Virus record (IMG/VR): IMGVR_UViG_3300047319_000532
Direction: 5' to 3' (one strand)
Source of the DNA: a virus
Length of the DNA: 64,000 bases
Made by a program: the position numbers and the translations under genes. This document shows positions 20,026 through 62,723 of this stretch, in pieces; the first letter of the stretch is position 1, and the number at the start of each line of letters is the position of its first letter. Under the pieces are notes generated by a model. The model was not told the DNA's origin. It searched no databases and worked only from the letters and a program-made list of their open reading frames with translations.

Positions 20026-21650
20026 CCACAATCAGCCTGCCCAGAACGATCGACGCCCACGCCCTGAAGCGGTCGATCGACAAGGAGCTGTGCGAGCGCA
20101 GTCTGGCTGATTTTGTCAAGATGGCGTGGAAGCACATCGAGCCCGGGCAGGTCTATTTTCACAACTGGCACATTGATTTCATCTGCCAGCATCTCGAGGC
20201 GATCGAGCGCGAGGAGCGCGTCGATGACGAAGTCTACAATCGTTTATTGATCAACGTCCCGCCCGGCATGATGAAGTCGATGCTGGTCGGCGTGTTCTTT
20301 CCGGCATGGCTGTGGGGGCCGCGCAACAAGGCGCACCTGCGCATCCTCGCCGTCAGCCACAACATCGAGCTGGCTGAGCGCGACAACATGCGGATGCGCC
20401 GCCTGATCGAGAGCGAGTGGTATCAGGATCTGTGGGGCGATCGCGTCATCCTGACCAGCGACCAGAACGCCAAGCGGCGCTACGAGAACACCGCCACCGG
20501 CTGGCGCATGGCGGTCGCCGCGGGCGGCGTCACCGGCTGGCGCGCCGACATCGTGATCGTCGATGACCCCCATAGCGTCAAGGGCGGCGACAGCGACGCC
20601 GATCGCCAGACCGTCTGCACGTGGTTCCGCGAATCCCTGCCGACCCGCCTCAACCGGCCCGACTCCAGCGCCATTATCGTGGTCATGCAGCGGGTGCACG
20701 AGAACGACGTCAGCGGCACCATCCTCGACGGCGACATGGGCTACGACCACATCATGCTGCCGATGCGCTTCGACCCCGACCGGGCCTGCGGGACCAGACT
20801 GGGCTACGAGGATCCGCGCCAGATCGACGGCGAGCTGCTGTTCCCGGCCCGCTTTCCGCTGGCGGTGGTCGATCGCGACGAGAAGATCCTCGGGCCCTAC
20901 GCCACCGCCGGGCAGATGCAGCAAGCGCCGACCCCTCGAGGCGGCGGCGTGGTCAAGGACGCCGACTGGCTGCTGTGGGTCCAGCCCGAGTACCCGCCGC
21001 TCGACTTTATTCTCGCCTCGATCGACACCGCCTACACCGAAAAGACCCAGAACGACTATAGCGCCATGACGGTGTGGGGCGTGTTCTCGGGCGAGCACGA
21101 CAAGATGACGACGCGCGGGGCCGATCGCTACGGCAAGCCGTTCCCGATGCCCAAGGGCGGCGGCCCTGAAGGCATGAGCAAGATCGTGCTGATGTTCGCA
21201 TGGCAGGACCGGCTGTCGATCCATGATCTGGTCAAACGGGTGGCCGAAACCTGCAAGTCGATGAAGGTCGATCGTCTGCTGATCGAGAGCAAGGCCAGCG
21301 GCATATCGGTGTCGCAGGAGCTGCGCCGCCTCTACGCGCATGAGCCATGGGCGGTCCACCTCATCAACCCGGGCAATCAGGACAAGCTGTCGCGGCTGCA
21401 CAGCGTCGAGCATTTCTTCGCCGAAGGTATGGTGTATGCGCCCAACAAATCATGGGCCGAGCTGGTGATCCGGCAGGTCGCCAGCTTTCCCAAGGCCAAG
21501 CACGATGATTTGACCGACACCGTCAGTCAGGCCATCCGCCACCTACGCGATTCCGGCCTGCTAATTCGCTCGGAAGAGCATCTGGCTGACCTTGCCAACG
21601 AGATGGATTTCAATAATGTTAAGCAGCCCCCGCCTCTGTATTCGGTTTGA
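20022..21650 (+). CDS. terL: terminase large subunit
   Basis: 542 aa. ATPase Walker A-like VPPGMMKS, Walker B IVIVDDPH and a C-terminal nuclease-type region (ASIDTAYT...KHDDLTDT). Confidence 0.9.
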   Translation: MTTISLPRTIDAHALKRSIDKELCERSLADFVKMAWKHIEPGQVYFHNWHIDFICQHLEAIEREERVDDEVYNRLLINVPPGMMKSMLVGVFFPAWLWGPRNKAHLRILAVSHNIELAERDNMRMRRLIESEWYQDLWGDRVILTSDQNAKRRYENTATGWRMAVAAGGVTGWRADIVIVDDPHSVKGGDSDADRQTVCTWFRESLPTRLNRPDSSAIIVVMQRVHENDVSGTILDGDMGYDHIMLPMRFDPDRACGTRLGYEDPRQIDGELLFPARFPLAVVDRDEKILGPYATAGQMQQAPTPRGGGVVKDADWLLWVQPEYPPLDFILASIDTAYTEKTQNDYSAMTVWGVFSGEHDKMTTRGADRYGKPFPMPKGGGPEGMSKIVLMFAWQDRLSIHDLVKRVAETCKSMKVDRLLIESKASGISVSQELRRLYAHEPWAVHLINPGNQDKLSRLHSVEHFFAEGMVYAPNKSWAELVIRQVASFPKAKHDDLTDTVSQAIRHLRDSGLLIRSEEHLADLANEMDFNNVKQPPPLYSV

Positions 21651-21663
21651 CAGGAGAACACCA

Positions 21664-22173
21664 ATGTCACGCTTCCCTCACAGCGTTGGGAATATCAAGT
21701 CTTCGATTGCTGATGCGCTCGACGAGACGCACCCGGGCGGCTACGGCGTGGGCGGCTTTGGCGCAGGGCCGACGCAGCCGGACGAAGGCCATCCGCTCCA
21801 GACGCCCGAGCAGCGCCAGAATATGGAGGAGCTGGCCCACGTCGCCGAGAATGATCGCATGCCGTCGATCCAAGGCGTCAATATGGACTTCGGCGCGGCC
21901 ATCCTGCTGATGGAGAGCGGTCTCAAGGTGCAGCGCGACGGCTGGAACGGCAAGGATATGTGGATCGCCCTGTCCGGCGTTAATGGAGCGCGCGAGGTGT
22001 ACAGCGAGAAGCTGTGGTCGAAGCCTGCCCGCGATTACGCCCGTCTGCAGCCCGGCGGCACGGTCAAAGTTTTGCCCTGCATCATCATGAAGACCGCCAC
22101 CGGCGAGCTGCTGATGGGTTGGCTCGCAAGCCAGAGCGACATGCTGGCCAAGGACTGGAGGGTTGTGCCGTGA
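21664..22173 (+). CDS. DUF2829 (Tad2-like) domain protein with a 75-aa N-terminal extension
   Basis: ATG 21664 inside track ORF 21592..22173. The C-terminal MDFGAAILLMESGLKVQRDGWNGKDMWIAL...IIMKTATGELLMGWLASQSDMLAKDWRVV is a close match to the DUF2829 signature. Confidence 0.8.
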   Translation: MSRFPHSVGNIKSSIADALDETHPGGYGVGGFGAGPTQPDEGHPLQTPEQRQNMEELAHVAENDRMPSIQGVNMDFGAAILLMESGLKVQRDGWNGKDMWIALSGVNGAREVYSEKLWSKPARDYARLQPGGTVKVLPCIIMKTATGELLMGWLASQSDMLAKDWRVVP

Positions 22174-23657: not shown

Positions 23658-23863
23658 TGATGAAAGCGCAGGCCACTGTCGATCGTTTCGTGTTTCCCAG
23701 CGGCATGCCGTCAAAGTCGATGTGGAAGGTCTATGTTTCGGACCCGTCACACGAGCACAGGCGCGACTACACCATCATCGCCGACGACGAAGACGCCGCG
23801 GCCAAGGAGGGATTGCGTCGTTTTCAGGCCGAACTGGACCCGGAGCCCCATCTGGACGTATAG
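23657..23863 (+). CDS. hypothetical protein
   Basis: ATG 23657 overlapping the previous stop, inside track ORF 23609..23863. Confidence 0.55.
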   Translation: MMKAQATVDRFVFPSGMPSKSMWKVYVSDPSHEHRRDYTIIADDEDAAAKEGLRRFQAELDPEPHLDV

Positions 23864-23892
23864 TCGGGCCAAACATCCCTCGAGGACGCGCC

Positions 23893-26400
23893 ATGCCGCT
23901 TGTGCCGGGACTGTCACCCTCTATCCGCGTCACCAACGAGGGAGTGCCCGGCGCGATCGCCCCCGGCCTCTCAATCAGGCACGACAACGAGAATTACGAA
24001 GGCGCGCCAGAAGTCGATAAATCCGGCGCGGTCATCAAGATCGAGCATGCCGATGGATCGGTCACTGTCTCCCTCGACGGCAACCCGCTGATCGGCGCGC
24101 CGGAAGACGAGAACGCAGGCTGGTTCGACAACCTAGCCGACAAGATCGAAGACAACGAGCTGGCGCGCATCGCCGACGACCTGCTGCGCGGCGTCGATGA
24201 CGACCTGCAGAGCCGCAGCGACTGGATCGAGGAGCGCGCCCAAGGCATCAAGCTGCTCGGGTTCAAGATCGAGCTGCCCAACGTGTCCGGCTCGACCGAC
24301 GGCGCTCCGGTCGAAGGCATGTCCAAGGTGCGGCACCCGCTGCTGCAGGAGGCCGTGCTGCGTTTTCAGGCCAACGCCCGCTCGGAAATGCTGCCGACCG
24401 ACGGCCCGGTCAAGATCCGCGACGACGGCAATCAGGGCAATATCCAGCAAGACACGGTGGCCAATGCGCTCCAGAAAGACCTCAACCACTATCTTACGGT
24501 CACCGCCACTGAATATTATCCCGACACGGATAAGATGTTTCTGCTGCTTGGATTCGGCGGCACCTCGTTCAAGAAAGTTTATAATTGTCCGCTACGAAAT
24601 CGGCCCGTGTCTGAATCGGTTGACGCCAACGACCTCATCGTCAACGACGCCGCCACCGACCTAGCCAACGCCAAGCGCGTCACCCATCGCATCCAGATGA
24701 AGCCGTCCACCGTCAAGCGCATGCAGATCATCGGCGCTTACCGCGACATCGATCTGGCGACGCCGCTCGAGCCCAAGACCGACGCGGCCAAGGAGGCGGC
24801 CAACAACCAGCAGGGCATCACGCCCAGCTCGATGCGCCCGGATGACCGCAACCGGGAAATCTACGAGTGCTATTGCGAGCTGGACATCAAGGGCTACGAA
24901 CACAAGCACAAGGGCAAAGTGTCCGGCCTCGAGGTGCCCTATTGCGTCACCATCGACGTGTCGTCGAAGCAAGTGCTGTCGGTCACCCGCAATTTTGACG
25001 AAGAGACGCGAAAATTGCCGGTCGCGCGCGAGAATTTCGTCAAATACACCTATGTGCCCGGGCTGGGCTTCTACGACCTCGGCCTGCTGCACATCCTTGG
25101 CAACACCACCAACGCAACGACGGCTGCATGGAGAGAAATGCTCGATGCTGGCATGTTCGCCAGTTTCCCCGGCTTCCTGATGGCAGACACGGGGGCTCGC
25201 CAGAACACCAATATCTTCCGCGTGCCGCCGGGCGGTGGCGCGTTGGTAAAGACCGGCGGGCTACCCATAAATCAGGCCATCATGCCCTTGCCTTACCAGC
25301 CGCCGAGCCCGGCGCTGATGCAGCTGATCGACAACATGGTGCAGACTGGCCAGCGTGTTGGCGGCACCGCCGAGATGCCGGTCGGCGAGGGCAAGGCCGA
25401 CATCCCGGTCGGCACTATCCTCGCCCTGATCGAGCAGGCGACCAAGGTGCTGAACGCGGTCCACAAGCGCATGCACGCCGCGCAGGCGCAAGAATTTCGC
25501 CTGATGGTCCGCTGTTTCAAGGAAAACCCCAAGGCGTTCTGGCGCGCCAACAAAAAGCCAGCCACGCAATGGGACGAGCAGACTTTCCTCGCCGCGCTCA
25601 ACAACAACGAGCTGACGCCGCAGGCCGACCCCAACACCTCGAGCTACGCCCAGCGCATCATGAAGATCATGGCGCTCAAGCAGCTGCAGCAGCAGAGCCC
25701 CGGGCTCTATGACCCGATCGCGATCGACACCGCGGCGGTGTCGGCGCTCGGCTTCACCAATCCGCAACAGTTCATGGCACCTCCGCAGGCGCAGGCCGCG
25801 CCGCCGCCCGAGCTGCTCAAGCAGCAGGCCGAGACGCAGGCCAAGCAGACGCAGGCGCAGGCCCAGATGATCAAGGCGCAGGCCGACGCCAAGGTGGCCG
25901 ACGCCAAGAGCCAGAGCCTGCTGGCGGAGGCGCAGGGGCAAGGGCTCGCCGGTGGCGGGCAGGTGGACACCGAAGTCGATCGCCACATGGCCGAAACCAA
26001 GCGCATGGAGGCCGAGACCGGCCAGACGGTCGCCGAACACAACATGACGATCGCGCAAGCCAAGGCGCAGGCCGAATTGCAGAACGCTGGGACGCGCGCC
26101 AAGGAGCTGCAGCTGAAGGTGGCGGGCACGCATATGGACGACGCCCACCACCAAGAGGAGCTGCAGGCCAAAGCCAAGGAAAACGCCGTCAATCTGGCCA
26201 AAGAAGTGCTGCAGACCAAGGCGGAAGACCACCGCACCATGGCGATCGAGGGCGCGGCCCACCAGCACGAGCGCGGCATGCAGGCTGAAGCCCACGCCCA
26301 CGAGCACGCGCTGGCCGACAAGGACAAGGAAAAGGCGATCGCGGTCGCCAGAGCCCGGCCAAAGCCTGCCGCCGCCAAGCCGAAAGGCAAAAAGCCATGA
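23893..26400 (+). CDS. portal protein with long Gln/Ala/Lys-rich C-terminal helix
   Basis: ATG 23893 inside track ORF 23722..26400, 835 aa. Assigned by position after TerL, size, and a C-terminal ~200-aa coiled helical region reminiscent of a P22-type portal barrel. Confidence 0.75.
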   Translation: MPLVPGLSPSIRVTNEGVPGAIAPGLSIRHDNENYEGAPEVDKSGAVIKIEHADGSVTVSLDGNPLIGAPEDENAGWFDNLADKIEDNELARIADDLLRGVDDDLQSRSDWIEERAQGIKLLGFKIELPNVSGSTDGAPVEGMSKVRHPLLQEAVLRFQANARSEMLPTDGPVKIRDDGNQGNIQQDTVANALQKDLNHYLTVTATEYYPDTDKMFLLLGFGGTSFKKVYNCPLRNRPVSESVDANDLIVNDAATDLANAKRVTHRIQMKPSTVKRMQIIGAYRDIDLATPLEPKTDAAKEAANNQQGITPSSMRPDDRNREIYECYCELDIKGYEHKHKGKVSGLEVPYCVTIDVSSKQVLSVTRNFDEETRKLPVARENFVKYTYVPGLGFYDLGLLHILGNTTNATTAAWREMLDAGMFASFPGFLMADTGARQNTNIFRVPPGGGALVKTGGLPINQAIMPLPYQPPSPALMQLIDNMVQTGQRVGGTAEMPVGEGKADIPVGTILALIEQATKVLNAVHKRMHAAQAQEFRLMVRCFKENPKAFWRANKKPATQWDEQTFLAALNNNELTPQADPNTSSYAQRIMKIMALKQLQQQSPGLYDPIAIDTAAVSALGFTNPQQFMAPPQAQAAPPPELLKQQAETQAKQTQAQAQMIKAQADAKVADAKSQSLLAEAQGQGLAGGGQVDTEVDRHMAETKRMEAETGQTVAEHNMTIAQAKAQAELQNAGTRAKELQLKVAGTHMDDAHHQEELQAKAKENAVNLAKEVLQTKAEDHRTMAIEGAAHQHERGMQAEAHAHEHALADKDKEKAIAVARARPKPAAAKPKGKKP

Positions 26401-29400
26401 ACAGGGCCATCCGCTCGGCGCTGCTGACGGCGCACAACCTCTACAAGCACATCCCGCATGTCGTCGGCGGCGGCGCGCCGATGCACAATGGCGGCATACC
26501 GGAAGGCTACGCCGACGGCGGCGCGGTCGATCCGACCATGCCGGAGCCGGAGAAGACGGTCAAAGCCTACAAGCTGTTCCGGCACAAGAACGGCAAGCTG
26601 TTCCCGCTCTACGTCAACGCCAACCAAGAGGTACCGATCGGCAAGTGGCTGAGCGCCGAAGCCGGTCCCCCGGGCAAGGACAAAGGCAAGGTTAAAAGCA
26701 AGCTCGGCGATCTGGCCTACCGGCCCGGCTGGCACTCTGGCGACATGCCGGTGGCCACGCACATCGGATCCAAAAGCCAGAAGGGGCTCACAGCGCCCGA
26801 CACGCGCCCGCCCGAGCATGTCTGGGCGGAAGTCGAGCACCCGGCAGACGTCGATTGGCAGAGCGTCGCCCACAATCGGGCTCAGATTATGAAAAGCGGC
26901 CTGCCCAATCTGGCCACCGCGCACATTACTGATCAGGTGCCGCACGGCGGCCACTATCGCTACAAGACCAACCCCAACATGACCGGCAACTGGATTATCA
27001 GCGGCGGCATGAAGGTCAATCGCGTGCTGCCGCACGAGGAAGTGCAGGCGCTTAACCAGCAGCATGGCGTCTATGACCTGCCGCGGCGCGAGCCTCAAAG
27101 CTTTGAACCCGATGAACGCCCCGGGCGTGACGTCGGCGGCCAGCTGACTGCGCCGCCGCCAGCTCCCGCTAAGCCGCCGATCGATCTATCCCGCTATCAG
27201 GATGCGCCGACCCAGAAGCTGCAGGATATGCCATGGCGGCCACTGGCCGACGTCCACGCCGATCTGGGCCACATGAGCGAAATTCCGTCGCATGTGCAGC
27301 ATTTTGGCCGCTTCATGGACGAGTCTGCCGAGAAGGCCGCCACCAAGGGCCTGACGCCGCGCGACCTGCTCAAGGCTTACGCCATCACACGCGCCTCGAT
27401 CGGTCGCGGCGCGCTGCCGCGCAAGACGCTCGAGGCCAATGGCTGGCAAGTGCCCGAAGGCGTGGACTCGCTCCGCCCCGAAGGAGCCATGGGCGAGTGG
27501 CTGCATACGCCAATGGGGCAGGAATACTTGCACCACGCCGAGCGTGGGCGCGTGCACGAGGGCGCGATCGCCGACGCCGTGCGCAAATTCAGGCCATTCG
27601 GCAAGCAAAACGACACCGAAGGCAAGGCGCTGGCGTGGGCCGCGCATAACCTGCCCGGCATGGAAGGCCACGTCTCCAAGATGGTGCAGGCGTCGCGCCA
27701 CAAAGACGCCAACCCTACCCTGTGGCGGCACTTCATCAAGACGGTCCCGGGCGTCAACATCGCCAAGGCGGGCTTTCTGGGCTCGATGCTGGGTATGGGC
27801 AACCAGCCGACGCTCGATGCGCGCCAGCTCATCCTCAACACCGGCAGGCCAACCAGCGAGGCGGCCAAGCCGATGTCGCGCGTAGGCGGCGCAGAGGAGG
27901 CGGTCGATCGTCTGGCTGCACGCCAGAAGGCGCTGCAGCTCGGCATACCGGAAGATTTGGAGCCTTATTACCAGCACCTTGCCCATCATGCGATCTGGGA
28001 CAAGTCGGCAGGCGAACAAACGACGCACGCCGACCTGATGCACGCCATGCGCTACGCAGCCAAGGGCGGCAGCATCATCAAAACCTCGGGCGGGACGTGG
28101 CCTGATCTAGGCAGTCATGAACTTGCACGCTCCATGCACGCAGTTTTTGGAGGCGCAGGCGGTCTGGGAGGCTTGTGGAAGGGCGCGAGCGACCAAAATG
28201 TGCGCGAACAGCTGCTAAACACGCCGGATTACGCCAATCCAAACCCAGAATTGGTTAAAAAGGCGCTGGCGCTGGCTCAAAAGACCCATGGCGTCAACCA
28301 AACCTTCGATTCGAAGTCGGGAATGTCGTATTCCAACTTCAAAGGCGGCACCAGACCGATCAGTGATGTCACTTCGACAGTAGAACCGATCCCGGGCGTC
28401 ACGCCGAAGCCTGTAAAACAGCTGGATTGGCAGGATTTCATCCGAAAAAACAAGGGCGCGAGCCTAATTAACGTCGGCGGCGACCGTTCGCGGCTGGGAC
28501 GACTGACTCACATCAACGACAAGGCGTTAGGCTGGCCTGTGGACCTGCATGCGGGCCCGGATTACATGCGCGAGCCAAATAAAGGCGCGGTTTGGGCCAA
28601 TGCCCAGAGCAACGCCAGCGGTTTTGCCAACACGGTCAAGAAACTTGGCGAACACGGCAAAGTTTTTGGCGTTTACAAGCCAATGGGCCCGCAGAGCGTC
28701 GATTCATCCCGCCAGATGAGCGACGCCCTGATGTCGCAGATCGCCGCGCAGCCGCTGGATCCCAAAGTGGCGCAGGAATTGGACGCCGAACTGAAAAAAG
28801 GCGCGCATGAGCCAGACGCAGCGGCGCGTGCCAAGGCGGTGGCGTCGATGGAAAACTGGCCCGGCTTCAGCAACCCGCGCGAGGCGCGCGATCACCTGCT
28901 CAAATTGCCCGGGACCGCGCGCAGCTTGGTCGTCAAGCACCTAGACAAGGCCGGGTGGCATGCAAAAGGCGTCCCGCATATCGGGCACACGCGCGTTGCG
29001 CTGACGGATCCGGCGGCGCTGACGACCCCCGGCCACATGCTCGGGCACCGCATCGTCGAATTGACGGGCGGGCACCCGGAAGCCTCCGCGTTCGAGCACA
29101 ATACATATCCCGTGCCCACCGGCGGTAGGTATGTCGGCGACGTGCCCAACGTGCTGGCGCACTACGCCATGCCGGAAGTGCAGCGTGGCTTCGCGCTCAA
29201 GCATCATGCTGCAGGCATGACGCATCCGCTGTCTGAAGCAGCTGGAGCGCGGTCGAGTTTTATCAAAATGATGGGCGAGCAGAAGAATGTTCAGCCGATC
29301 AATGAGGAAATGGCGCAGGGCGTTGGGCACGCGCAGGAAGTGCAGCAGGGCTTGAAACAAGCTGGCGTGCCCGGCTACGCCGAAGGCGGCGTGGTCGATA

Positions 29401-30917
29401 AGGCGCTGGCCATGACTGCTCCCCGCGCCCTCACGCCATCCGGCCTCTACAGTCAGGCGGGCGACGCCGCGGCTGCGCTGCCGCAGGCCAAGGGCTCGCC
29501 GCAGCAGATGATCGCCAGCATGAAGGGCGTCAAGCCGGAGGAGCTGGCGCACGCCAACCCCATGGGCAAGTTCGGCGATCAAAAAAGCGTGACGCGCGAC
29601 CAGCTTGCCGGGCACATGCGCTTCAACCTGCCGCGGATCAACGAGACCACGCACAGCGACGACGACATCGACGAGGATGACGAGGGCGAGCGCGCAGGCG
29701 GCCCGAAATATGAGGAATACTCAATCCCCGGCGGCCAGAATTATCGCGAGTTGGTGATGCACACGCCCAAGACGCCGACGCCACCGGCGACGCCGGAGAT
29801 GCAGGCGGCGCTCAAGCACCAGAACGACACTTACTGGGCGGCTAATGGCTGGCACATGCGCAACCAGTATGCGCTCGACAAAGATAATCCCGAGAAGATG
29901 GCCGAATACAAGACCCTGCATGACGCCCAGACTGCGGCGCAGCGCCATTACAGCCAGCTGCAGCAGGAGCATGTCGCCAAGGCCAAAGCGAAAGACTATC
30001 ATTCCAGCCATTGGGATGAGCCCAATGTGCTGGCCCACCTGCGCATGTCCGATCGCAAGCTGCCCAATGGCGAGAAGGCGCTCCACCTCGAGGAGCTGCA
30101 GAGCGACTGGGGGCAGGGTGCGCGTGAGCATGGCGTGCGCGGCGCAGAGCCGGAGCCCGACTGGCAGAAGAACCTCGAGGAAATGCGCAGCCGCCGTGGC
30201 AAAGAGGGCTTTGCCGACCCGGCGGAAGAGGCGCGCTTTCAGAAGCTACACAAACATGAGTGGGCGGTGCCTGCCGGTCCACATATTGGCTCGACCAACG
30301 GCTGGACCGATCTGGGGCTCAAGAGGGCTTTGATCGAGGCGGCTCGAGGCGGTCACGATCGGCTGGCGTGGACGCCGGGCGAAGAGCATGCCGATCGCTA
30401 CGGGATGCAGAAGCACTTCAGCGAAATACGCTATGAGCCTAGCCGGAAGCATCTTTATGCTTTCCAGCATGCTGGCGCTGGCGCGTCGCCGCAGGAAGTC
30501 GAACCAGACCAGCTGCACCAGTATGTCGGTCGCGATCTGGCCAACCGGCTGCTGTCCACCGAACCGAAGAGCGGCGCGCATGTGCTCACCGGCGACGATC
30601 TGCGCGGCGGCGGCGAAGGCATGAAGGCGTATTACGACAAGCTGGTGCCGACCCGGCTCAAGGAGATTCTCAAAAAGTTGGGGCATGAGGCTGATTTTGA
30701 ACCAGTAACCATCAAACACCCTTCCAAACACGGCAAGCGCGGCGACGACGCCCAGACCACGCTGCACTCAGTCAAGCTGCCGAAAGAGTTGCGTGAGAAG
30801 ATCAAAAAGGGCCTGCCTGCGTTCAGCACCGGCGGCGATGTCGATATGGTGAACCGTGCTTTGCGTGTCACGGCCAAACCTGCCAAACTACACGCCCAAC
30901 GCGCTTTGGGGAGTTAG
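26397..30917 (+). CDS. giant (1506 aa) virion-module protein, function unknown
   Basis: ATGA overlap with the portal stop. Continuous ORF with no family I can name. See findings. Confidence 0.85.
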   Translation: MNRAIRSALLTAHNLYKHIPHVVGGGAPMHNGGIPEGYADGGAVDPTMPEPEKTVKAYKLFRHKNGKLFPLYVNANQEVPIGKWLSAEAGPPGKDKGKVKSKLGDLAYRPGWHSGDMPVATHIGSKSQKGLTAPDTRPPEHVWAEVEHPADVDWQSVAHNRAQIMKSGLPNLATAHITDQVPHGGHYRYKTNPNMTGNWIISGGMKVNRVLPHEEVQALNQQHGVYDLPRREPQSFEPDERPGRDVGGQLTAPPPAPAKPPIDLSRYQDAPTQKLQDMPWRPLADVHADLGHMSEIPSHVQHFGRFMDESAEKAATKGLTPRDLLKAYAITRASIGRGALPRKTLEANGWQVPEGVDSLRPEGAMGEWLHTPMGQEYLHHAERGRVHEGAIADAVRKFRPFGKQNDTEGKALAWAAHNLPGMEGHVSKMVQASRHKDANPTLWRHFIKTVPGVNIAKAGFLGSMLGMGNQPTLDARQLILNTGRPTSEAAKPMSRVGGAEEAVDRLAARQKALQLGIPEDLEPYYQHLAHHAIWDKSAGEQTTHADLMHAMRYAAKGGSIIKTSGGTWPDLGSHELARSMHAVFGGAGGLGGLWKGASDQNVREQLLNTPDYANPNPELVKKALALAQKTHGVNQTFDSKSGMSYSNFKGGTRPISDVTSTVEPIPGVTPKPVKQLDWQDFIRKNKGASLINVGGDRSRLGRLTHINDKALGWPVDLHAGPDYMREPNKGAVWANAQSNASGFANTVKKLGEHGKVFGVYKPMGPQSVDSSRQMSDALMSQIAAQPLDPKVAQELDAELKKGAHEPDAAARAKAVASMENWPGFSNPREARDHLLKLPGTARSLVVKHLDKAGWHAKGVPHIGHTRVALTDPAALTTPGHMLGHRIVELTGGHPEASAFEHNTYPVPTGGRYVGDVPNVLAHYAMPEVQRGFALKHHAAGMTHPLSEAAGARSSFIKMMGEQKNVQPINEEMAQGVGHAQEVQQGLKQAGVPGYAEGGVVDKALAMTAPRALTPSGLYSQAGDAAAALPQAKGSPQQMIASMKGVKPEELAHANPMGKFGDQKSVTRDQLAGHMRFNLPRINETTHSDDDIDEDDEGERAGGPKYEEYSIPGGQNYRELVMHTPKTPTPPATPEMQAALKHQNDTYWAANGWHMRNQYALDKDNPEKMAEYKTLHDAQTAAQRHYSQLQQEHVAKAKAKDYHSSHWDEPNVLAHLRMSDRKLPNGEKALHLEELQSDWGQGAREHGVRGAEPEPDWQKNLEEMRSRRGKEGFADPAEEARFQKLHKHEWAVPAGPHIGSTNGWTDLGLKRALIEAARGGHDRLAWTPGEEHADRYGMQKHFSEIRYEPSRKHLYAFQHAGAGASPQEVEPDQLHQYVGRDLANRLLSTEPKSGAHVLTGDDLRGGGEGMKAYYDKLVPTRLKEILKKLGHEADFEPVTIKHPSKHGKRGDDAQTTLHSVKLPKELREKIKKGLPAFSTGGDVDMVNRALRVTAKPAKLHAQRALGS

Positions 30918-30921
30918 GATC

Positions 30922-31176
30922 ATGTGCTTTTCACTCGCTTGGCTGCAACAGCTGCTGATCTGGATCGTGATCGTCGGCGCAATCGTCGCCATCCTGCAGC
31001 TGTTCGTGCCGTGGGTGGTGGCCAATGCTGGCATTTTTGGTGATGCGGTGAACATCATCCTGCAGATCATCAAGATCGTCGTATGGGCGATCGTGGTCAT
31101 TTTTGTCATTTACGTCGCGTTCGATCTGATCAGCTGCCTGCTGTCGTCAGGCTCTCTCAAGTTGCCGCGGTCGTAA
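30922..31176 (+). CDS. polytopic small membrane protein (84 aa)
   Basis: ATG 30922 inside track ORF 30856..31176. Almost entirely hydrophobic (LLIWIVIVGAIVAIL..., IIKIVVWAIVVIFVIYVAF). Confidence 0.65.
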   Translation: MCFSLAWLQQLLIWIVIVGAIVAILQLFVPWVVANAGIFGDAVNIILQIIKIVVWAIVVIFVIYVAFDLISCLLSSGSLKLPRS

Positions 31177-31219
31177 CTTCCCGGCCCCCGGGGGCCAAAC
31201 ACCCGAGAGGACTAAAACC

Positions 31220-32377
31220 ATGTCCGCACAAGCAAAACAATACCGCGCAGCGATGAAGGCTAAAGCCCAAAGGCTGGGAGGCAATATGTCAGCTGGCAAG
31301 GTTGACGCCAGCTCATTCGGGCCTGTCGAGGGCTCGGATCCGCTCAACGCCGACATCAAGGCTGGCCTGCGCCCGGTCGCCCCACGCGCCTATCAGCGCG
31401 GCGGCGCGGTGACCGGCGAGGAGCACCATGCCCACGGTGGCCGCGTTGGCCGCAAGAGCGGCGGAGGCATGCCGAGAAAGATCGCCGATGAAATCGCCAT
31501 GAACGATGTGGTGGACGCCAACAAGTCGATCTATGGCAGCAAGCACGTCGGCGGCCTGAAGCGCGGCGGAAAGGCTGGCGGCGGCCCGCTGGGCGGCTTC
31601 AACGCCATCACCAGCCCGCAACAGGCTGCGGCGGCTGGGCAGGCCACGCAGAACGTCGCAGGCGTCGCTCCGCAGCGCATGCAGTTCGGTCAGGGCGCAC
31701 CCGGTTTGCTGCACGTCAAGAAGGGCGGCGCGGTAAAACGTGATGCGGGCGGATCCACCAAAGACAACGCTGATGTTGTGTTGCCGAAGAAGGGCGACGA
31801 TGGCTCGAGCGGCCCCGGACGTCTGCATGGGTACGCCGAAGACAACAGCGGCGGCGAGACCCCGAAAAAGCGCGGCGGCAAGGTCGAGCATCCATACAAG
31901 GCGGAAGACAAAGCTTGCGCCAAGAAACTGGCGCGGCACCACCGCGCTGCAGGCGGGGGAGAAGATCCCGACGAGGCGGAAGACAAGGCCGATCAGGCTG
32001 AGCAGGCTGAAAAGAAGTGCAGCGGCGGCTCGATGCGCGCCGCGCGCGCCCATGGCGGCAAGACTGGCAAGGGCAGGACCAATATCAACATCATCATCGG
32101 GGCGCACGCGCCCGGCGGTGAACAGCAGCAGCCTCCGGGCGGGCCTCCGGCTCCGCCGCCGCCGCGTCCGATTCCGGTGCCGCCTCCGGCAATGCCGGGC
32201 GGGCCGCCTCCGGGCGCAGGCGGGCCGCCTCCGATGGGCGGGCCGCCTCCGATGCCCATGCCTCCGCCGGGTGGCATGCCGCGCGCTTCCGGCGGGCGGG
32301 CTTATCCGATCCAGCATGCTGCAGGCGGCGGCAAGGGCCGCCTCGAGAAGATCAAAGCCTATGGAGAGAAACCATGA
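31220..32377 (+). CDS. very basic Gly-rich protein with repeated x-G-G-[K/R] motifs and a C-terminal poly-proline tract
   Basis: 385 aa, RBS gagaggactaaaaccATG. Motifs QRGGAV, AHGGRV, KRGGKA, KKGGAV, KRGGKV, AHGGKT, ASGGRA. PPGGPPAPPPPRPIPVPPPAMPGGPPPGAGGPPPMGGPPPMPMPPPGGMP. Confidence 0.7.
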   Translation: MSAQAKQYRAAMKAKAQRLGGNMSAGKVDASSFGPVEGSDPLNADIKAGLRPVAPRAYQRGGAVTGEEHHAHGGRVGRKSGGGMPRKIADEIAMNDVVDANKSIYGSKHVGGLKRGGKAGGGPLGGFNAITSPQQAAAAGQATQNVAGVAPQRMQFGQGAPGLLHVKKGGAVKRDAGGSTKDNADVVLPKKGDDGSSGPGRLHGYAEDNSGGETPKKRGGKVEHPYKAEDKACAKKLARHHRAAGGGEDPDEAEDKADQAEQAEKKCSGGSMRAARAHGGKTGKGRTNINIIIGAHAPGGEQQQPPGGPPAPPPPRPIPVPPPAMPGGPPPGAGGPPPMGGPPPMPMPPPGGMPRASGGRAYPIQHAAGGGKGRLEKIKAYGEKP

Positions 32378-32649
32378 GCTTCGAAAAAAGTGCAGCCAAC
32401 CATGCAATGGCCGTTGCTCTGGGGCTTCTGATCCTGCTGTTCGCTTTTGCAGGCTTCATCATTTCCGCCCGTTCCCAGCAGATCGAAATCGGACCGGGCG
32501 GCGTCCACGTGAATCCGCTGCCGGACTATGGTCGTCATCGCAGCTGGGGCCGCACATGCGAGGAGCTTCGTCTCGCATGCGAATACAAGTCGGAGCGCGG
32601 TGAGGAGGGCATGGGAAATTGCCGTCGCTACCGTGAAACATGCCAGTAA
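32374..32649 (+). CDS. signal-anchored small Cys-containing protein
   Basis: 91 aa, ATGA overlap. TM segment AVALGLLILLFAFAGFII, then a C-terminal CEELRLACEY...GNCRRYRETC. Confidence 0.6.
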   Translation: MSFEKSAANHAMAVALGLLILLFAFAGFIISARSQQIEIGPGGVHVNPLPDYGRHRSWGRTCEELRLACEYKSERGEEGMGNCRRYRETCQ

Positions 32650-32665
32650 TGAAACAGGGAGATGA

Positions 32666-33379
32666 ATGATGGTTTTGCGTCATGTTGTAATTCGCGGAGT
32701 GGCTGATATTGGCGACGTAGTCGGTCCCGGCTGGAGTCCAGTTGACCCCGGTTTCGGCCAGCCCGGCTGGCGTCCGGTTGATCCGGGCTTTGGCGCTGGC
32801 GCGCCGCCGGTGGATCCGGGCTTTGATCGCCCCACACATCCGCATCCCGATCAGGGCTTGCCCGGTTACGGCCATCCCGATCATGACCTGCCCGGCAGGC
32901 CGCCTCATCCTTCGCATGGCCTCCCCGGTTACGGCCATCCCGATCAGGGCTTGCCCGGCTACGGCCATCCCGACAACAGCCTGCCCGGCCTTCCGGTCTA
33001 CCCTTCGCAGGGTCCGATCCTTCCGGCACCTCCCGGCCATCCGATCCCCACGCCGCGCGTGCCGGTGGTGCAGGTCATCCAGCTGCCGATCGACGAGACG
33101 CTTCCGACTGAGCCCCCGCACCGGCCCGGCAGGATCTGCATCGTGGTCGATGGCGAAACCAAGGCGGTTGGCTGGCTGCAGGGTTCAGACGACCTTCCGG
33201 TCGCCGCGCCCAAGAGTGAAGCGCCGGTTGTCGGCGGCCACTGGGTTCCGGTCGAAGTCTATCCGCAGGCGGCACCCAAAAAGTGCAGCGACGGCAGCGA
33301 GGGCGTAGGCAAGACCGGCTTTGCGTGGGTGTTCGAAATCGACAAGGACTGGGGCGCGAAGCCGACGCCGACGGCGTAA
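32666..33379 (+). CDS. Pro/Gly/His-rich repeat protein
   Basis: 237 aa. PVDPGFG x3 and GLPGYGHPD x3 repeats, then a globular C-terminal half. Confidence 0.65.
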   Translation: MMVLRHVVIRGVADIGDVVGPGWSPVDPGFGQPGWRPVDPGFGAGAPPVDPGFDRPTHPHPDQGLPGYGHPDHDLPGRPPHPSHGLPGYGHPDQGLPGYGHPDNSLPGLPVYPSQGPILPAPPGHPIPTPRVPVVQVIQLPIDETLPTEPPHRPGRICIVVDGETKAVGWLQGSDDLPVAAPKSEAPVVGGHWVPVEVYPQAAPKKCSDGSEGVGKTGFAWVFEIDKDWGAKPTPTA

Positions 33380-33390
33380 AGACAAAATAA

Positions 33391-33430
33391 GGCCCCGCTC
33401 GCGTACATCCGGCGTAGCGGGGCCCTTTTT
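33391..33430 (+). terminator. strong rho-independent terminator
   Basis: GGCCCCGCT(33391-33399)/AGCGGGGCC(33416-33424), then C + TTTTT. Confidence 0.8.
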
Positions 33431-33705: not shown

Positions 33706-34091
33706 TGGCTTATGCCCAGATGGAGCATGAATTGGAGCCTCGTTTGAAGCTCCTGAAAGAATTGGGCGACATTTCGGGCATCGAGCTGTTCACCAACCAC
33801 GTGCTGGTTGCGGTCTACCAGCGTCCTGAAAAGACCAAGTCCGGCATCTTCCTGCCCGGCCAGACGCGAGATGAAGATCAATACCAATCCAAAGTCGGCC
33901 TCGTGATCAAGAAAGGGGCGCAGGCTTTTGTCAGCACCGGCGGCTGGAATTTCGAAGACGTCAATGTAGAGGACTGGGTCATCTTTCGCCCCTCCGACGG
34001 CTGGGCCACCGGCATCAATGGCGTCTACTGCCGCTTTCTCGTCGATACCTCCATCAAAGGGCGCGTCAGCTCGCCTGACCTGATCTGGTGA
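33705..34091 (+). CDS. GroES/Cpn10-like co-chaperonin
   Basis: NHVLVAVYQRPEKTKSGIFLPG...SKVGLVIKKG...VEDWVIFRP follows the Cpn10 pattern (mobile-loop-like KTKSGIxLP). Upstream of scaffold and capsid. Confidence 0.55.
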   Translation: MAYAQMEHELEPRLKLLKELGDISGIELFTNHVLVAVYQRPEKTKSGIFLPGQTRDEDQYQSKVGLVIKKGAQAFVSTGGWNFEDVNVEDWVIFRPSDGWATGINGVYCRFLVDTSIKGRVSSPDLIW

Positions 34092-34969
34092 ATCCCATGG
34101 CCAAAGACCCCAACATCGACCCAGACTGGACACCGCCGGTTGACAGGGCTGAACAGCAAACGCCGGATCCGATCGCCGAACTGAAGGCGCAGCTCGCCCG
34201 CGAGCAGGCGGCGCGCGCCGACGCCGAGAAGCGCGCCAACGAGCTGGCGCAGGCTGCGCACAGCTCGCAGAACGAAGTGGCCGACAGCCAGCTGCAGCTG
34301 GTCACCTCGGCGATCGAGCGCGTCAAGGAACAGCGCACGCTGATCCGCAACGCCAAGGCGCAGGCCGCGGCGGCAGGCGACTGGGACGCCGTCGCCGTGC
34401 TGGATGACCAGCTGGCTGACGAAGCCGCCAGACAACTGCAGCTGGAGAACGGCAAGGCCGCCATGGAGGCGCAGCCGAAGCCGCAAGCGCCGCAACCGAT
34501 CCGCACCATGTCGCAGGATCCGGTGGAGGCGCTGGCCAGCCAGCTGACGCCGCGCTCCGCCGCATGGGTTCGAGCCCATCCCGAATGTGCTCGAGACCAG
34601 AAACTCTATGCCAAGATGATCGCCGCCCACAATCTGGCGGTCGCCAATGACATCGAGCCGGATTCCGACGAATATTTTCACACGGTCGAGCAGACGATCT
34701 ACAACAAGAAGCCTGTCACGAACGTCGAAGAAAATGACGATGATGACGATGATGATCCGATGGCTGCCGCCGCCAAAGCGGTTCCGGCGCGCGCCGCGGC
34801 TCCGCCAGCAGCTCCAGTCAGCCGCGGCAGCGTCAACACTCGCAGTATGCGCCTGACGCCTGCCGAGCGCGAAGCTGCTGAAATTTCCGGCCAGACTGAG
34901 CAGGAATACGCGCAGGCGAAGGAAGACATGATCAAAGCGGGCCGCATTGGCCAAGGAAGGATTCACTGA
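34088..34969 (+). CDS. scaffolding-like protein
   Basis: Track start GTG 34088 (alternative ATG 34097). Coiled-coil Ala/Gln/Glu-rich with an acidic DDDDDDD patch. Position just before the capsid genes. Confidence 0.6.
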   Translation: MNPMAKDPNIDPDWTPPVDRAEQQTPDPIAELKAQLAREQAARADAEKRANELAQAAHSSQNEVADSQLQLVTSAIERVKEQRTLIRNAKAQAAAAGDWDAVAVLDDQLADEAARQLQLENGKAAMEAQPKPQAPQPIRTMSQDPVEALASQLTPRSAAWVRAHPECARDQKLYAKMIAAHNLAVANDIEPDSDEYFHTVEQTIYNKKPVTNVEENDDDDDDDPMAAAAKAVPARAAAPPAAPVSRGSVNTRSMRLTPAEREAAEISGQTEQEYAQAKEDMIKAGRIGQGRIH

Positions 34970-49274: not shown

Positions 49275-49758
49275 GGATGTGAAAGTTCGTTTCGGCGTGC
49301 CAGATGACGTCCACAACTTCATGGACCTCACCTTCATGTGCGCGGAAGAAAACGGCCTGCTGTCGATGAGCACTCCGAAGGTGCTCAAGGAGGTGTGGGC
49401 CAGCCTCAACAATGATCACGGTCTCATAGGCGTGATCGAGAGCAGCGAAGGCGTGCTCGAGGCGGGCATCCTGTTGCGCGTTGACACCATGCCATACAGC
49501 GAAGACCCAGTCATATGCGAGCGTGCGATCTTCGTCAGACCGGAGTTTCGCGCCGCCAAGGGCGGGCGCGCCAGTCGGCTGTGTGAATTTGCCAAAGTCG
49601 TCTCGGACAAGCTGGAGATGCCGCTGCTAATCGGTGTTTTGTCAACGCATCGCGCTGCTGGTAAGGTGCGTCTATACGAGCGTCATTTTGGAAAGCCAGC
49701 CGGAGCCTACTGGCTATACGGGGCCAACACTGGCCCAGAACAAGAAGCGGCGGAGTAG
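49267..49758 (+). CDS. GNAT-like N-acetyltransferase
   Basis: 163 aa. ERAIFVRPEFRAAKGGRASRLCEFAKV resembles the acetyl-CoA binding motif A. Confidence 0.55.
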   Translation: MTEDVKVRFGVPDDVHNFMDLTFMCAEENGLLSMSTPKVLKEVWASLNNDHGLIGVIESSEGVLEAGILLRVDTMPYSEDPVICERAIFVRPEFRAAKGGRASRLCEFAKVVSDKLEMPLLIGVLSTHRAAGKVRLYERHFGKPAGAYWLYGANTGPEQEAAE

Positions 49759-49762
49759 GGCG

Positions 49763-52700: not shown

Positions 52701-53551
52701 CCGGGCTGGATCCTCGAGTCGCCAATAGGGCGCTCAATCAGGAAGACATTGGCGGCAACCCCGATCAGCCCGGCGCAAAGCTTCCCAATCGCGTGCCGAC
52801 CCCAATGCCTCCGGGGCCAGTGCGCGCTGATGTCAATGAGCCCCCGCGGCCACTGCCGCCGCCCGACGCCGGGCTTGTGAAGAAAGCTGCGCCTGCGCCT
52901 GTGACGCCGCCGGTGCGTCCGGCAGCGGCTGGGCTCAACCCTTCTGCGCCGCTGCAGCCGCATATCGTGCACACGGTCCCGGTGGCTCCGCAGCCCGCAA
53001 GGCAGATCCCCGGAGCGATGCAGCCTTCGTATGGGGCCAACGCCTACGCGCCGACGCCTCGGATTGCGCCCGCGCAGCAGGCGATCGAGCAGGGAATCCC
53101 CGGCGCGCGTGGCCGCAACGTCAGCCCCAGCTCACCGGCGACGATCCACGACTATGGCGGTTGGCAGGCTCCGTCTGTCGGGCAGGTGTTCAACCGTGCG
53201 GCTGAAATTGCCCGTCAATACGGCATCGACCCGCATCTTTTCCAGCGCATGATTCAGCAGGAAAGCGGCGGTCTGATCGACAACATCGGCGACGGCAGGT
53301 CTTCATTTGGGGTGATCCAAGCGCACTTTGGCGGCATCAATCCGAAGATGCCTCATGCGGGCATGGGTGATGACATGCGGCGCGCTGGCATCGATGTCTT
53401 CGATCCGAGCACATGGGAGAAGCAGCTGGCCTTTGCGGCCAATCACATCCGCAACAGCGGCTGGTCGGCGTGGACGACCACCATGCGCAAACTGGGATAT
53501 AATTATGCTTCAGGCGGTCTCGTGCCGCCGCGCAGAGATGAAGAGGCTTGA
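49763..53551 (+). CDS. internal/ejection protein with Gln-rich N-terminus, internal S74 chaperone domain and C-terminal lytic transglycosylase
   Basis: ATG 49763 inside track ORF 49634..53551, 1262 aa. FFSDRRLKENVKRIG...RLGFMADEVEKKHPEAVG...TVDY (about nt 50594-50800). SLT-type AEIARQYGIDPHLFQRMIQQESGG near the C-terminus. Confidence 0.8.
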   Translation: MGGKSQTSSQQVTIPPEVLARYNAVNANAQQVSQTPFQQYSSDPNAFVAPLTAAQNQGLQATSDYANAAQPGVQSAMGMTQGAMGAANPSDLNADAINKYMNPYTQNVTNQMTQLMNQQNQVAQSGQMGNAIKSGAFGGDRSGLAAMNLAGQQSLAYGNAMAPVLQQGYNTALSTAQQQQGVDLQAQQANLQRQMAGASQYGQLAGMGQQYGLAGAQALMGAGQVQQQTQQAGNTALYNQFLQQQSYPFQTAQFLANIAEGTGALSGQTTTSTQPSSFFSDRRLKENVKRIGTAKNGLPIHSFNYKDDPDKLTRLGFMADEVEKKHPEAVGLAGGYKTVDYGRAARASGGGTVTDFDHGRGFDLGGGIGSMYDPSWSGIDTKEANVLGHAGSAAAPGLDPYTAANRHVPKQSTAAPTHRMLTPGTMPQQQKSGLQQAAGLVQSGLGMYKDVKGMAGDAKSAYHDATGGGGEAPAAGHAAPAAGGSGDNPFSVKSAEPAAPAAPAAAAPAAPVHEGALETAAPETKVTELLPQDVPDVSGLAGAIPDVGFGARGGRIGRDMGGGLAASMPPPMMPETSQASMMQNEAKMRQSTPPTWNGPFAHGGLADGGQPAPVVTGAPTHGPDVVSPTADYLKGLGEAQEAQQRANDVQEKQHAVQQANPFMYSPDLSPFGQMMNARGLMQASQAQGQEGMYSPSYNGKPLGFVRGGLAGGGEGGGDVPYQDTGGLDIPDDKSWQQDKSEQKSMEPAPQKSGDSGGGGGAMGALGSIAGVIGKIAPLFMLAKGGGVQDGDEIPMGAVQREDDDDLPLLEREGGLLPKENAPLPPERPAGLGHALPDHFAEPDRFAPAGEHSRSMAPEGFTPNGPDNPLPEPFDRAKRFTLEDTHSRDMAPEGFTPNKPDNPLPEPFAAGLAGDRTAMADALRGDNSVAAMAPDNFTPGRPPSPLDRSELEGSPFAGYEKGLGADPLKADLQQNPPRVMPGLDPRVANRALNQEDIGGNPDQPGAKLPNRVPTPMPPGPVRADVNEPPRPLPPPDAGLVKKAAPAPVTPPVRPAAAGLNPSAPLQPHIVHTVPVAPQPARQIPGAMQPSYGANAYAPTPRIAPAQQAIEQGIPGARGRNVSPSSPATIHDYGGWQAPSVGQVFNRAAEIARQYGIDPHLFQRMIQQESGGLIDNIGDGRSSFGVIQAHFGGINPKMPHAGMGDDMRRAGIDVFDPSTWEKQLAFAANHIRNSGWSAWTTTMRKLGYNYASGGLVPPRRDEEA

Positions 53552-60741: not shown

Positions 60742-60811
60742 GATGCACTCCAAGGGATTTTATAGGGGAGGGGAAGGCCGCTGGGGAAGGCTCCCAGCGG
60801 CCCCGGTCAGG

Positions 60812-62567: not shown

Positions 62568-62723
62568 CTAGTGCTTCCCCAAGATCCAGCCGCCAAAGAC
62601 CCATCCGGCTGCGCCGAACGCGATGATGTCGATGGCGATCAGCAGGATCAGCGCGGTCCCGATCATGCGATCGTTCCGGCTCATGTGCCGTTCCAACTGT
62701 TCTAGTTGCTCGGCGTCGATCAT
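62568..62723 (-). CDS. small membrane protein (51 aa)
   Basis: Hand-read MIDAEQLEQLERHMSRNDRMIGTALILLIAIDIIAFGAAGWVFGGWILGKH. ATGA overlap with the MazG stop. Confidence 0.5.
   Translation of the reverse strand: MIDAEQLEQLERHMSRNDRMIGTALILLIAIDIIAFGAAGWVFGGWILGKH

Follow-up and report, generated by a model that had tools for sequence, protein, structure and literature searches.

We analysed a 64,000-nucleotide (nt) stretch of viral DNA, IMG/VR record IMGVR_UViG_3300047319_000532, referred to below as the window, and we concentrate here on a block of five open reading frames (ORFs), named gpA to gpE, that lies between the portal gene and the genes for a GroES-like protein, a scaffold-like protein and the major capsid protein. 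On balance, we favour the explanation that this block is a portal-proximal internal-protein locus in which gpA, a protein of 1506 amino acids (aa) that very probably belongs to the polyvalent class, would be packaged into the head and delivered to the host by injection. Comparison with related loci indicates that the block is a fixed locus with a hypervariable candidate effector gene, as would be expected of a component of an arms race.

Polyvalent proteins, which occur in phages and in conjugative elements, were described by Iyer, Burroughs, Anand, de Souza and Aravind in 2017 (J Bacteriol; PMC5512222), who predicted that those encoded by phages, among virion genes of the portal and terminase type, are packaged in the capsid and injected. 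They are thought to deliver a first strike on host defences, and almost none has been studied experimentally. Enzymes that are carried in the head and delivered with the DNA include T4 Alt, P1 DarB/Ddr and the N4 virion RNA polymerase (PMC5512222). These share with the present proposal the concept of action before any phage gene is expressed, and no sequence relationship between them and the block was found.

gpA is assembled from modules that occur in polyvalent proteins

gpA is encoded at 26397-30917 on the + strand and consists of a leader followed by about six shuffled modules. A protein collection search returned 902 homologues at E <= 1e-5, and a module map was made by segment-wise BLAST of gpA against the best 120 of these. 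Six segments, D1 to D6, align independently of one another and appear in differing order and copy number among the 120 proteins. D4-D6 are found upstream of D2-D3 in many of them, and D1 may be first, in the middle, last or duplicated (the duplicate is in P0002). The homologues also carry ART-PolyVal, InPase, PBECR5, PcfJ or DUF7178 domains, and a peptidase M15 domain is likewise present among the proteins that share modules with gpA. Because the modules of gpA are common to proteins with ART-PolyVal, InPase, PBECR5, PcfJ or peptidase M15 domains, we assign it, with high confidence from this network of homology, to the polyvalent class of Iyer et al. Like the proteins described by these authors, gpA is giant and multi-domain, varies in domain order and is encoded at the side of the portal gene. 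The gene adjoins portal and virion genes in the window and also in L001, L003, L005, L009, L011, L012 and L013 (L numbers designate the related loci that were compared).

The segment alignments agree with structure prediction in describing multiple globular domains of varying order and content. Two AlphaFold2 models were computed with homologue alignments. The model of residues 1-1008 has a predicted local distance difference test score (pLDDT) of 80, with the modules mostly above 85 and the segments between them below 50, and that of residues 990-1506, covering D4-D6, has a pLDDT of 86 and a predicted template modelling score of 0.81.

Module D1 (residues 38-235, or 38-232 by segment-wise BLAST; 26508-27101, + strand) is beta-rich and matches phrog_30118 with E 4e-60 over residues 55-233. 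This family of unknown function was the sole match for the block when the five proteins were searched directly against Pfam, PHROGs and NCBIfam. D1 is 57-70% identical in 20 proteins of otherwise differing architecture, and it is found in gp38 of Roseobacter phage CRP-212. In this cultured marine phage (L007 4981-8592) the D1-bearing protein, of 1203 aa, comes after the portal gene and a 72-aa ORF and before the coat gene; CRP-212 could provide an experimental handle on D1. The strings KLFR, KVKSKLG and WAEVE in D1 are reminiscent of the R...S...ExE signature of ADP-ribosyltransferases. This candidate was rejected, because D1 had an hhalign probability of 0.4% with an alignment of the ART-PolyVal sequences of the homologues.

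Module D3 (residues 616-1007; 28242-29417, + strand) is an alpha/beta domain with pLDDT mostly above 90. It is common to about 110 homologues, often with InPase after it, and it had no match in Pfam or the PDB. D4 (residues 994-1125), D5 (1200-1393) and D6 (1390-1483), together at 29376-30845 on the + strand, were delimited by the segment-wise BLAST. Foldseek comparison of the D4-D6 model with the PDB gave no match below E 0.05, and scattered matches to GNAT/FemX-type transferases (probability 0.72-0.85) were too weak for use. Invariant residues in this part of gpA include H1205, H1230, E1233, Q1235, S1236, D1237 and W1238 (H216, H241, E244, Q246, S247, D248 and W249 of alignment A1, plus 989). 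Matches of the N-terminal model in BFVD were nearly all labelled "uncharacterized"; one, a Flavobacterium phage protein, bore the label "structural protein". D1, like D3 and D4-D6, is well folded and yielded no usable structural match.

Several results weigh against the assignment of gpA and must be set beside this evidence. gpA had no match in Pfam (searched whole and also as four pieces, with E up to 5), NCBIfam or the PDB sequences, and neither a hallmark polyvalent Pfam domain nor a MuF domain nor a zincin peptidase was found in it. In this respect gpA is unlike the proteins of Iyer et al., since its modules match no Pfam polyvalent domain (LPD, MPTase, MuF-C and so on). For four of the six modules there is no functional hint. 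The MuF family, sought as a sign of MuF-fused effectors or polymorphic toxins, was also absent among the Pfam matches of gpA and of the scanned homologues. The first-pass annotation of this DNA, a reading by eye, had called all five products unassignable. This describes correctly the outcome of direct Pfam, NCBIfam, PHROG and PDB sequence searches, and it ceases to apply to gpA once the homologues are inspected.

A profile search of the PDB with the gpA alignment produced a single match, 9b41_L, which is owed to InPase columns contributed by homologues. Chain L of 9b41 is a "gp19 portal" of 765 residues, and an InPase profile matches its C-terminus at residues 635-763 with E 3.8e-20. It is a structural example of a polyvalent-type effector domain attached to a portal.

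Module D2 has a DNA-glycosylase-like fold

Of the six modules, D2 (residues 263-561; 27183-28079, + strand) resembles a known enzyme fold, that of the HhH-GPD/OGG glycosylases. Its pLDDT is mostly 86-96. Foldseek matched the module to the archaeal Ogg structures 3knt, 3fhf and 3fhg with probability 1.00, target template modelling scores of 0.58-0.73 and a root mean square deviation of about 5 Å, and also to dozens of OGG1 entries and one AlkA-type enzyme. The BFVD match for D2 is a giant-virus protein of the 3-methyladenine glycosylase 2 family. The two-lobed helical HhH fold is thus recognisable in D2 from the matches to MjOgg and SsOgg (E about 1e-2). In an alignment of 47 homologues, a G452-x-x hairpin, K457 (46 of 47) and D474 (45 of 47) are conserved, and the spacing from the first Gly to the Asp, 22 residues, is that of E. 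coli Nth.

Other comparisons speak against a glycosylase. The Foldseek E-values are weak, about 1e-2, and were obtained with the 1008-residue multi-domain model as the query. K457 is found one residue past the site that the catalytic Lys occupies in Nth and OGG1. No HhH-GPD profile (PF00730 or its relatives) matched gpA or 57 homologues at E up to 0.05, and hhalign of D2 with E. coli Nth gave a probability of 0.04%, with the hairpin alone aligned. In summary, D2 shares with the HhH-GPD enzymes (3knt, 3fhf, 3fhg, OGG1, Nth, AlkA) its fold, a Gly-rich hairpin turn and a nearly invariant Asp; unlike them, it shows no profile similarity, has its Lys shifted by one and is embedded in a phage effector polyprotein. 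We conclude from the model that D2 is glycosylase-like by fold, and that glycosylase chemistry is putative. The word "glycosylase" does not occur in the 2017 description of polyvalent proteins (PMC5512222).

A recurring linker peptide joins the modules

The modules of gpA appear to be strung on a peptide that recurs at its ends and joints. The leader, residues 1-37 (26397-26507, + strand), begins with MNRAIRSALLTAHNLYKHIPHVVGGG and was recognised from motif counts and a DNA match; a copy at the C-terminus, beginning with GGDVDMVNRALRVTAK (30831-30914, + strand), was recognised from the motif GG-x-V...(K/R)AL. The full motif consists of GG-x-V and then a helix of the form (K/R)-A-L-x-hydrophobic-(T/S/A). 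A helix of the type (K/R)-A-(L/I/M)-x-hydrophobic-(A/S/T) starts 80 of 117 complete homologues, whatever domain follows, compared with 0.9 in shuffled sequences, and GG-x-V...(K/R)AL is present within the last 45 residues of 38 of the 120 homologues (0.11 in shuffles). The combined motif occurs 61 times, as against 4.6 in shuffles. Within gpA the GG motif is found at residues 41, 557, 997 and 1479, in each case in an inter-module segment of low pLDDT.

The leader is also the place where gpA has a match at the DNA level. About 90 nt (26405-26495), coding for residues 3-33, AIRSALLTAHNLYKHIPHVVGGGAP, are the only stretch of gpA with a DNA match to L009 and L011 (77-79%), and in these two loci the matching sequence lies inside their polyvalent gene. 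A related observation comes from L011 (7704-7925) and L012 (3722-3943): there the 681-aa polyvalent gene is immediately followed by an ORF of 73 aa that has the linker motif, ...FAKGGIVEQALKATKPK, at its end and that resembles, judging from its sequence, a C-terminal polyvalent segment that has become detached.

Three roles are conceivable for the linker motif: a site of cleavage, a helix for docking to the capsid interior or the portal, and a conserved joint for recombination between modules. In T4, proteins are targeted to the capsid by a short N-terminal sequence that is cleaved by the prohead protease. An extended version of this idea would make the linker a portable signal for capsid loading or excision of any effector module, with gpC, which is essentially an array of GG motifs, as the constant carrier or partner, and the DNA encoding the peptide as the recombination joint of a plug-and-play cassette. 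We regard this scheme as unlikely. If it were true, a very abundant lineage of uncultured phages would have a system of capsid targeting or processing that is new, and a new class of injected DNA-glycosylase effector would be added as well. An hhalign comparison of the gpC N-terminus with the polyvalent leader yielded P 0.03 over 8 columns, a weak resemblance that is suggestive at best. The leader/linker peptide and the constant GG-repeat partner are features of the present locus that are not described in PMC5512222.

The slot is conserved and its candidate effector gene is exchanged

A scan of IMG/VR with the capsid protein of the window recovered at least 593 related contigs, the best 80 of which are 88-94% identical in this protein, and 20 IMG/VR loci spanning portal to GroES were surveyed. 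The contigs that carry homologues share an order of genes: terminase, small ORFs, SU10-type portal, one or more polyvalent genes, a gpC-like gene, an ORF of about 70 aa, GroES, a scaffold-like gene, two ORFs, capsid (PF25209) and an SU10-type adaptor. The order portal, polyvalent, gpC-like, ~70-aa ORF, GroES, scaffold and capsid is found in L001, L003, L005, L009, L011, L012 and L013. In the window the portal stop codon, a TGA within ...GCCATGAAC..., overlaps the start of gpA in the sequence ATGA (26397-26400), as the first-pass annotation had observed, and in the relatives the polyvalent start likewise abuts or overlaps the portal stop (by 4 nt or similar). The content of the polyvalent slot varies from locus to locus: D1-D2-D3, D4-D5-D6, D2-D3, D3-D6, ART only, InPase only, or none of these in the 20 loci.

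This contrast is also seen in the closest subgroup, L009, L011, L012 and L013, which has the full five-gene pattern and in which the polyvalent gene differs completely. Identity to the window in this subgroup is 67-70% for the portal, 73-83% for gpB, about 40-50% for gpC, 60-71% for gpD, 68-72% for gpE and 89-94% for the capsid. For L009 and L011 taken by themselves the values are 68-70% (portal), 73-83% (gpB), 60-71% (gpD), 72% (gpE) and 90% (capsid). When gpA is compared with L009 and L011, the protein match is confined to residues 3-50, and apart from the ~90 nt of the leader the DNA homology stops at the portal stop codon and restarts at 30919-30922, the start of gpB. In place of gpA, L009 has a protein of 738 aa with ART-PolyVal and DUF7178, L011 and L012 have one of 681 aa with ART-PolyVal and GP88, and L013 has one of 1071 aa with the leader, D2 and a divergent D3. 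In the closest GenBank phage, MW202675.1 (capsid protein 85% identical), three polyvalent-type proteins follow the portal, the first of which combines GNAT, peptidase M15 and ART-PolyVal domains.

The first-pass annotation had viewed the block as an oddity wedged into a head operon of T7 or P22 style. An alternative considered here is that the phage of the window alone acquired the block, recently and by horizontal transfer, as a moron or cargo island. The absence of direct database matches for the five products is compatible with such an event, as is the length of the portal-to-GroES interval, which at 7.3 kb in the window is the longest surveyed (1.9-6.6 kb in the 20 loci). The synteny survey contradicts it: the slot is filled in every relative examined, gpB to gpE show about as much conservation as the structural genes next to them, and GC content and GC content at third codon positions (GC3) match the remainder of the genome, with turnover confined to the polyvalent gene. 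Since the slot is occupied throughout the relatives and its polyvalent content differs, the block is no foreign wedge but the normal layout of this lineage, and we consider a recent insertion very improbable. The same comparison bears on the description of the block as a cargo or effector module, which is the best reading of the 1506-aa protein, with its modules common to polyvalent proteins, and which fails for the remainder, because four of the five genes are conserved core in the closest relatives and not variable cargo.

What is new here is a set of modules, one of which folds like a glycosylase; a leader/linker that can be defined; a GG-repeat protein as constant partner; and, in an uncultured lineage that is abundant, an exchangeable cassette with sharp limits. 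The locus is in effect a natural experiment, in which interchangeable effector sets with mapped sharp boundaries and a recognisable linker are combined with nearly identical capsids. It makes testable the importance of particular modules for particular hosts, the targeting of proteins to the capsid interior and the role of an injected DNA-glycosylase-like enzyme. The analysis also defines several domain families, all of them well folded, that Pfam and NCBIfam lack, and a widespread GG-repeat family that is missing from these two databases and also from PHROGs.

gpC is a constant neighbour, and gpB, gpD and gpE are subgroup-specific

gpC (385 aa; 31220-32377, + strand) is basic and Gly-rich, with an isoelectric point of 10.0, 19% Gly and 12% Pro. 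The first-pass annotation had it end in a poly-proline tract; the tract is present at about residues 300-352 and is followed by a conserved 30-residue tail, so that the protein does not strictly end in poly-proline. Its family has 673 homologues, none with a Pfam domain, and comparison of the family with PHROGs gave no family. In 19 of the 20 surveyed loci a gpC gene lies between the polyvalent gene and GroES. Alignment A3 shows a conserved N-terminus, MSExAKxARxAMKAKAxRL...KVDAS, and C-terminus, GAGGGxGRLEKIxAYG, repeated basic GG motifs with several invariant GG pairs that resemble the linkers, and a TNINIIIGA segment. Around columns 600-700 of this alignment some members (P0127, P0139, P0149 and P0156) have an extra conserved insert, GNWIKGAIKHPGALHKELHVPEGKKIPEKKLEKAEHS, that gpC of the window lacks. 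Because of its constant presence beside the polyvalent gene, its isoelectric point of 10 and its low complexity, gpC is most likely another internal head or ejected protein, as far as sequence can indicate.

gpB (84 aa; 30922-31176, + strand) is a membrane protein that is, as noted earlier, almost purely hydrophobic, with a grand average of hydropathy of 1.76 and hydrophobic character over residues 1-79. gpD (91 aa; 32374-32649, + strand) has a single N-terminal hydrophobic segment (residues 6-35) and four Cys, in agreement with its description as a signal-anchored Cys protein. gpE (237 aa; 32666-33379, + strand) contains Pro/Gly/His repeats (19% Pro, 15% Gly and 5% His), as the earlier reading had it, and a C-terminal region of about 100 residues; it has 72 homologues. 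These three proteins are conserved in the closest subgroup only, at the same positions in L009, L011, L012 and L013; gpB occurs in two of the 20 surveyed loci (L018 and L090). In the 43-nt gap between gpB and gpC (window 31177-31219) there is a short GC-rich palindrome, CCCGGCCCCCGGGGGCC, with no T-run.

We favour envelope-directed accessory functions at entry for gpB, gpD and gpE; roles in exclusion or lysis are possible. A lysis cassette formed by gpB and gpD was considered and rejected, as no endolysin is adjacent. The sole candidate in the window is an ORF at 60235-60753 on the - strand, a possible endolysin with a weak CHAP match (E 0.0023) that is below the cut-off.

These possibilities are part of a wider alternative, in which the products of the block are not packaged and act late in the producing cell, gpB, gpD and gpE in superinfection exclusion or the timing of lysis and gpA in intracellular anti-defence or host takeover. 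In outline, gpB, with two hydrophobic stretches, and gpD, small and signal-anchored, are like holins or the T4 exclusion proteins Imm/Sp, and the case for packaging is one of analogy. However, the genes are within the head-assembly operon, with translational coupling to the portal, and placement next to the portal recurs in unrelated phages, gp38 of CRP-212 following its portal and C72C1 lying next to its own. Anti-defence enzymes whose synthesis is confined to the late phase would miss their moment unless they were carried over to the next cell, and the only endolysin-like ORF is far away on the opposite strand. We judge this alternative improbable.

Packaging, injection and the ejection-protein alternative

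The explanation that we prefer, an internal-protein locus with gpA as an injected protein, can be set out as follows. The block would be the portal-proximal internal-protein locus of a large uncultured lineage with an SU10-type portal, and gpA consists of independently folding modules strung on the recurring linker peptide. gpA would be translated in step with the portal by way of the ATGA overlap, loaded into the procapsid and released into the host together with the DNA, and from the onset of infection its modules would act against targets of the host or of its defences. The slot is a hot spot of cassette exchange, in which the effector gene is swapped whole or by module between flanks that are 60-90% identical. 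gpC is the constant partner, sharing the GG motifs of the linkers, and gpB, gpD and gpE would be subgroup-specific accessory proteins directed to the membrane or envelope.

That gpA and gpC are packaged and delivered seems to us probable by analogy, because a polyvalent protein of phi24B, gp47, is in virions, because the portal 9b41 bears InPase, and because the 2017 work predicted as much. gp47, a polyvalent protein of 2811 aa, was detected in phi24B virions by mass spectrometry (bioRxiv 10.64898/2026.04.10.717836). It is like gpA in being a large polyvalent protein of a short-tailed phage, and the capsid reconstruction does not show gp47, for which ejection has been proposed. The two differ in that gp47 has LPD5, LPD1, LPD38 and a MuF-C metallopeptidase, which gpA does not, and in that packaging has experimental support for gp47 and is inferred for gpA. 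A point against our explanation is that the presence of the five products in the virion is argued from analogies such as these.

A quite different possibility is that the five proteins are structural, equivalent to the T7 gp14-16, P22 gp7/gp16/gp20 or SU10 gp20-24 proteins that provide an ejection or trans-envelope channel. Short-tailed phages store their ejection proteins in the head (PMC9509320), of which SU10 has five, gp20-24 (PMC9509320), and SU10 and the Kuravirus group share the portal family PF23899 with the lineage of the window, the adaptor PF24175 being present in relatives. Membrane and proline-rich proteins, such as would suit a channel, are found in the block (gpB, gpD, gpE and gpC with its poly-Pro tract); one relative encodes, after its portal, a protein with a peptidase M15 cell-wall domain; and the authors of the phi24B study propose that a conduit is formed by the virion polyvalent protein (bioRxiv 10.64898/2026.04.10.717836). 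A structural conduit, however, should be conserved, and gpA is replaced by unrelated architectures where capsids are 89-94% identical. In addition, the glycosylase fold of D2 and the ADP-ribosyltransferase, pyrophosphatase and RNase domains of the homologues represent cytoplasmic activities, and a separate ejection-protein candidate is found downstream of the tail genes. This is the ORF at 49634-53551 (+ strand, 1305 aa), which matches PHROGs "DNA ejection protein" and "virion structural protein" and the MW202675.1 homologue of which is annotated "internal virion protein D | putative acetyltransferase"; by its matches and its position after the tail genes it is probably the canonical ejection protein.

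Considered protein by protein, gpA is not part of a set conserved across related phages, as ejection proteins would be, and gpC is, as are gpB, gpD and gpE within the subgroup. We therefore hold the ejection-channel reading to be possible for gpB, gpC, gpD and gpE, and for the five proteins as a whole to be doubtful, with a small share of the probability. The first-pass annotation had set two marks by which ordinary conserved head or ejection proteins would be known, presence at this position in all relatives and known roles. The block does occupy the same position in all relatives, and the roles of its products are predicted rather than established.

A conserved stem-loop closes the block

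The block ends in a GC-rich, terminator-like hairpin with a T-run at 33391-33430, bidirectional in appearance. The stem sequence GGCCCCGCT (33391-33399) pairs with AGCGGGGCC (33416-33424), and CTTTTT follows to 33430. With a 9-bp outer stem and an inner stem, its stability is -25.9 kcal/mol when read on the + strand; on the - strand, for which the upstream A-tract provides the T-run, the value is -27.8 kcal/mol. When every T-run on both strands was scanned, this was the most stable combination of hairpin and T-run, which bears out the earlier claim that it is the strongest terminator of the window; a consensus terminator scan omits the site, the loop being above its 8-nt limit. The arrangement in the window is thus that of an intrinsic terminator, a GC-rich hairpin directly followed by a T-run. 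At this position the hairpin would separate the genes of the block, for which a low copy number presumably suffices, from those for GroES, scaffold and capsid, which are needed in abundance.

In the subgroup, hairpins at the same place have an identical 9-nt loop, GTACATCCG, and compensatory changes in the stem. Hairpins with this loop are found at 33400-33415 of the window, 10684-10735 of L009, 10749-10792 of L011, about 6740-6790 of L013 and 7038-7089 of L018. The T-run is present in the window only and absent in the subgroup relatives, which argues against the interpretation just given: the hairpin may have been conserved for something other than termination, and the conserved part is the stem-loop. 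The loop GTACATCCG has no downstream complement in the subgroup of the window.

In more distant relatives (L003, L021, L035, L044, L046, L048, L055, L062, L065, L067, L070, L074, L075, L079, L082, L088, L094 and L096) a hairpin lies about 250-315 nt upstream of the GroES start, where the window has its terminator-like site, and its loop is C-rich (CCCCTC, CCCTCT, CTCCTC, CCCCCT, TCCCTTCT and others). Over 6-10 nt this loop is a perfect complement of a stretch that lies 7-28 nt downstream and is purine-rich and in many cases like a Shine-Dalgarno sequence. There is covariation between loop and target, with a mean best complementarity of 5.03 compared with 3.36 +/- 0.22 in permutations. By these features the C-rich-loop element looks like a leader of the pseudoknot type ahead of the genes for the ~70-aa ORF, GroES, scaffold and capsid. 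When 22-38 kb of the window and seven related loci were searched against Rfam, no family corresponded to the hairpin or leader element.

Flanking genes and other features of the window

The window amounts to a nearly complete phage genome, with genes for DNA polymerase, primase, methyltransferase, large terminase, tail fibre and virion proteins. The portal gene (892 aa; 23722-26400, + strand) matches PF23899 SU10_portal with E 4.7e-15 and the portal family phrog_1216 with E 4.3e-27. All five ORFs called in the block by the first-pass annotation are present, and each has a purine-rich ribosome-binding site directly 5' of it. Their GC3 values, 0.63-0.78, show the bias that genuine genes have in this genome; those of the terminase, portal and capsid genes are 0.74-0.86. 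On the 3' side of the block are a 71-aa ORF, the GroES-like gene, a gene for an acidic protein of 293 aa, two ORFs (180 and 214 aa) and the major capsid gene. There is a Cpn10 match with E 1.5e-7 for the GroES-like gene and a match to the PHROG major head protein with E 5e-10 for the capsid gene, so that these genes do restart after the hairpin as had been proposed. The label "scaffold" for the 293-aa ORF (34088-34969) comes from position and composition alone.

Upstream of the portal region, a 193-aa ORF (21592-22173, + strand) contains a Tad2-like domain (Thoeris anti-defence 2, PF11195) with E 6.7e-21, and Tad2-like ORFs between terminase and portal are also present in L003, L009 and L011. 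Their position upstream of the portal gene suggests that anti-defence genes may stand on both of its flanks. Elsewhere in the window there are a gene for a MazG-like pyrophosphohydrolase (62720-63184, - strand) and a DNA methyltransferase gene (2080-2949, + strand) that matches phrog_359 with E 2e-61.

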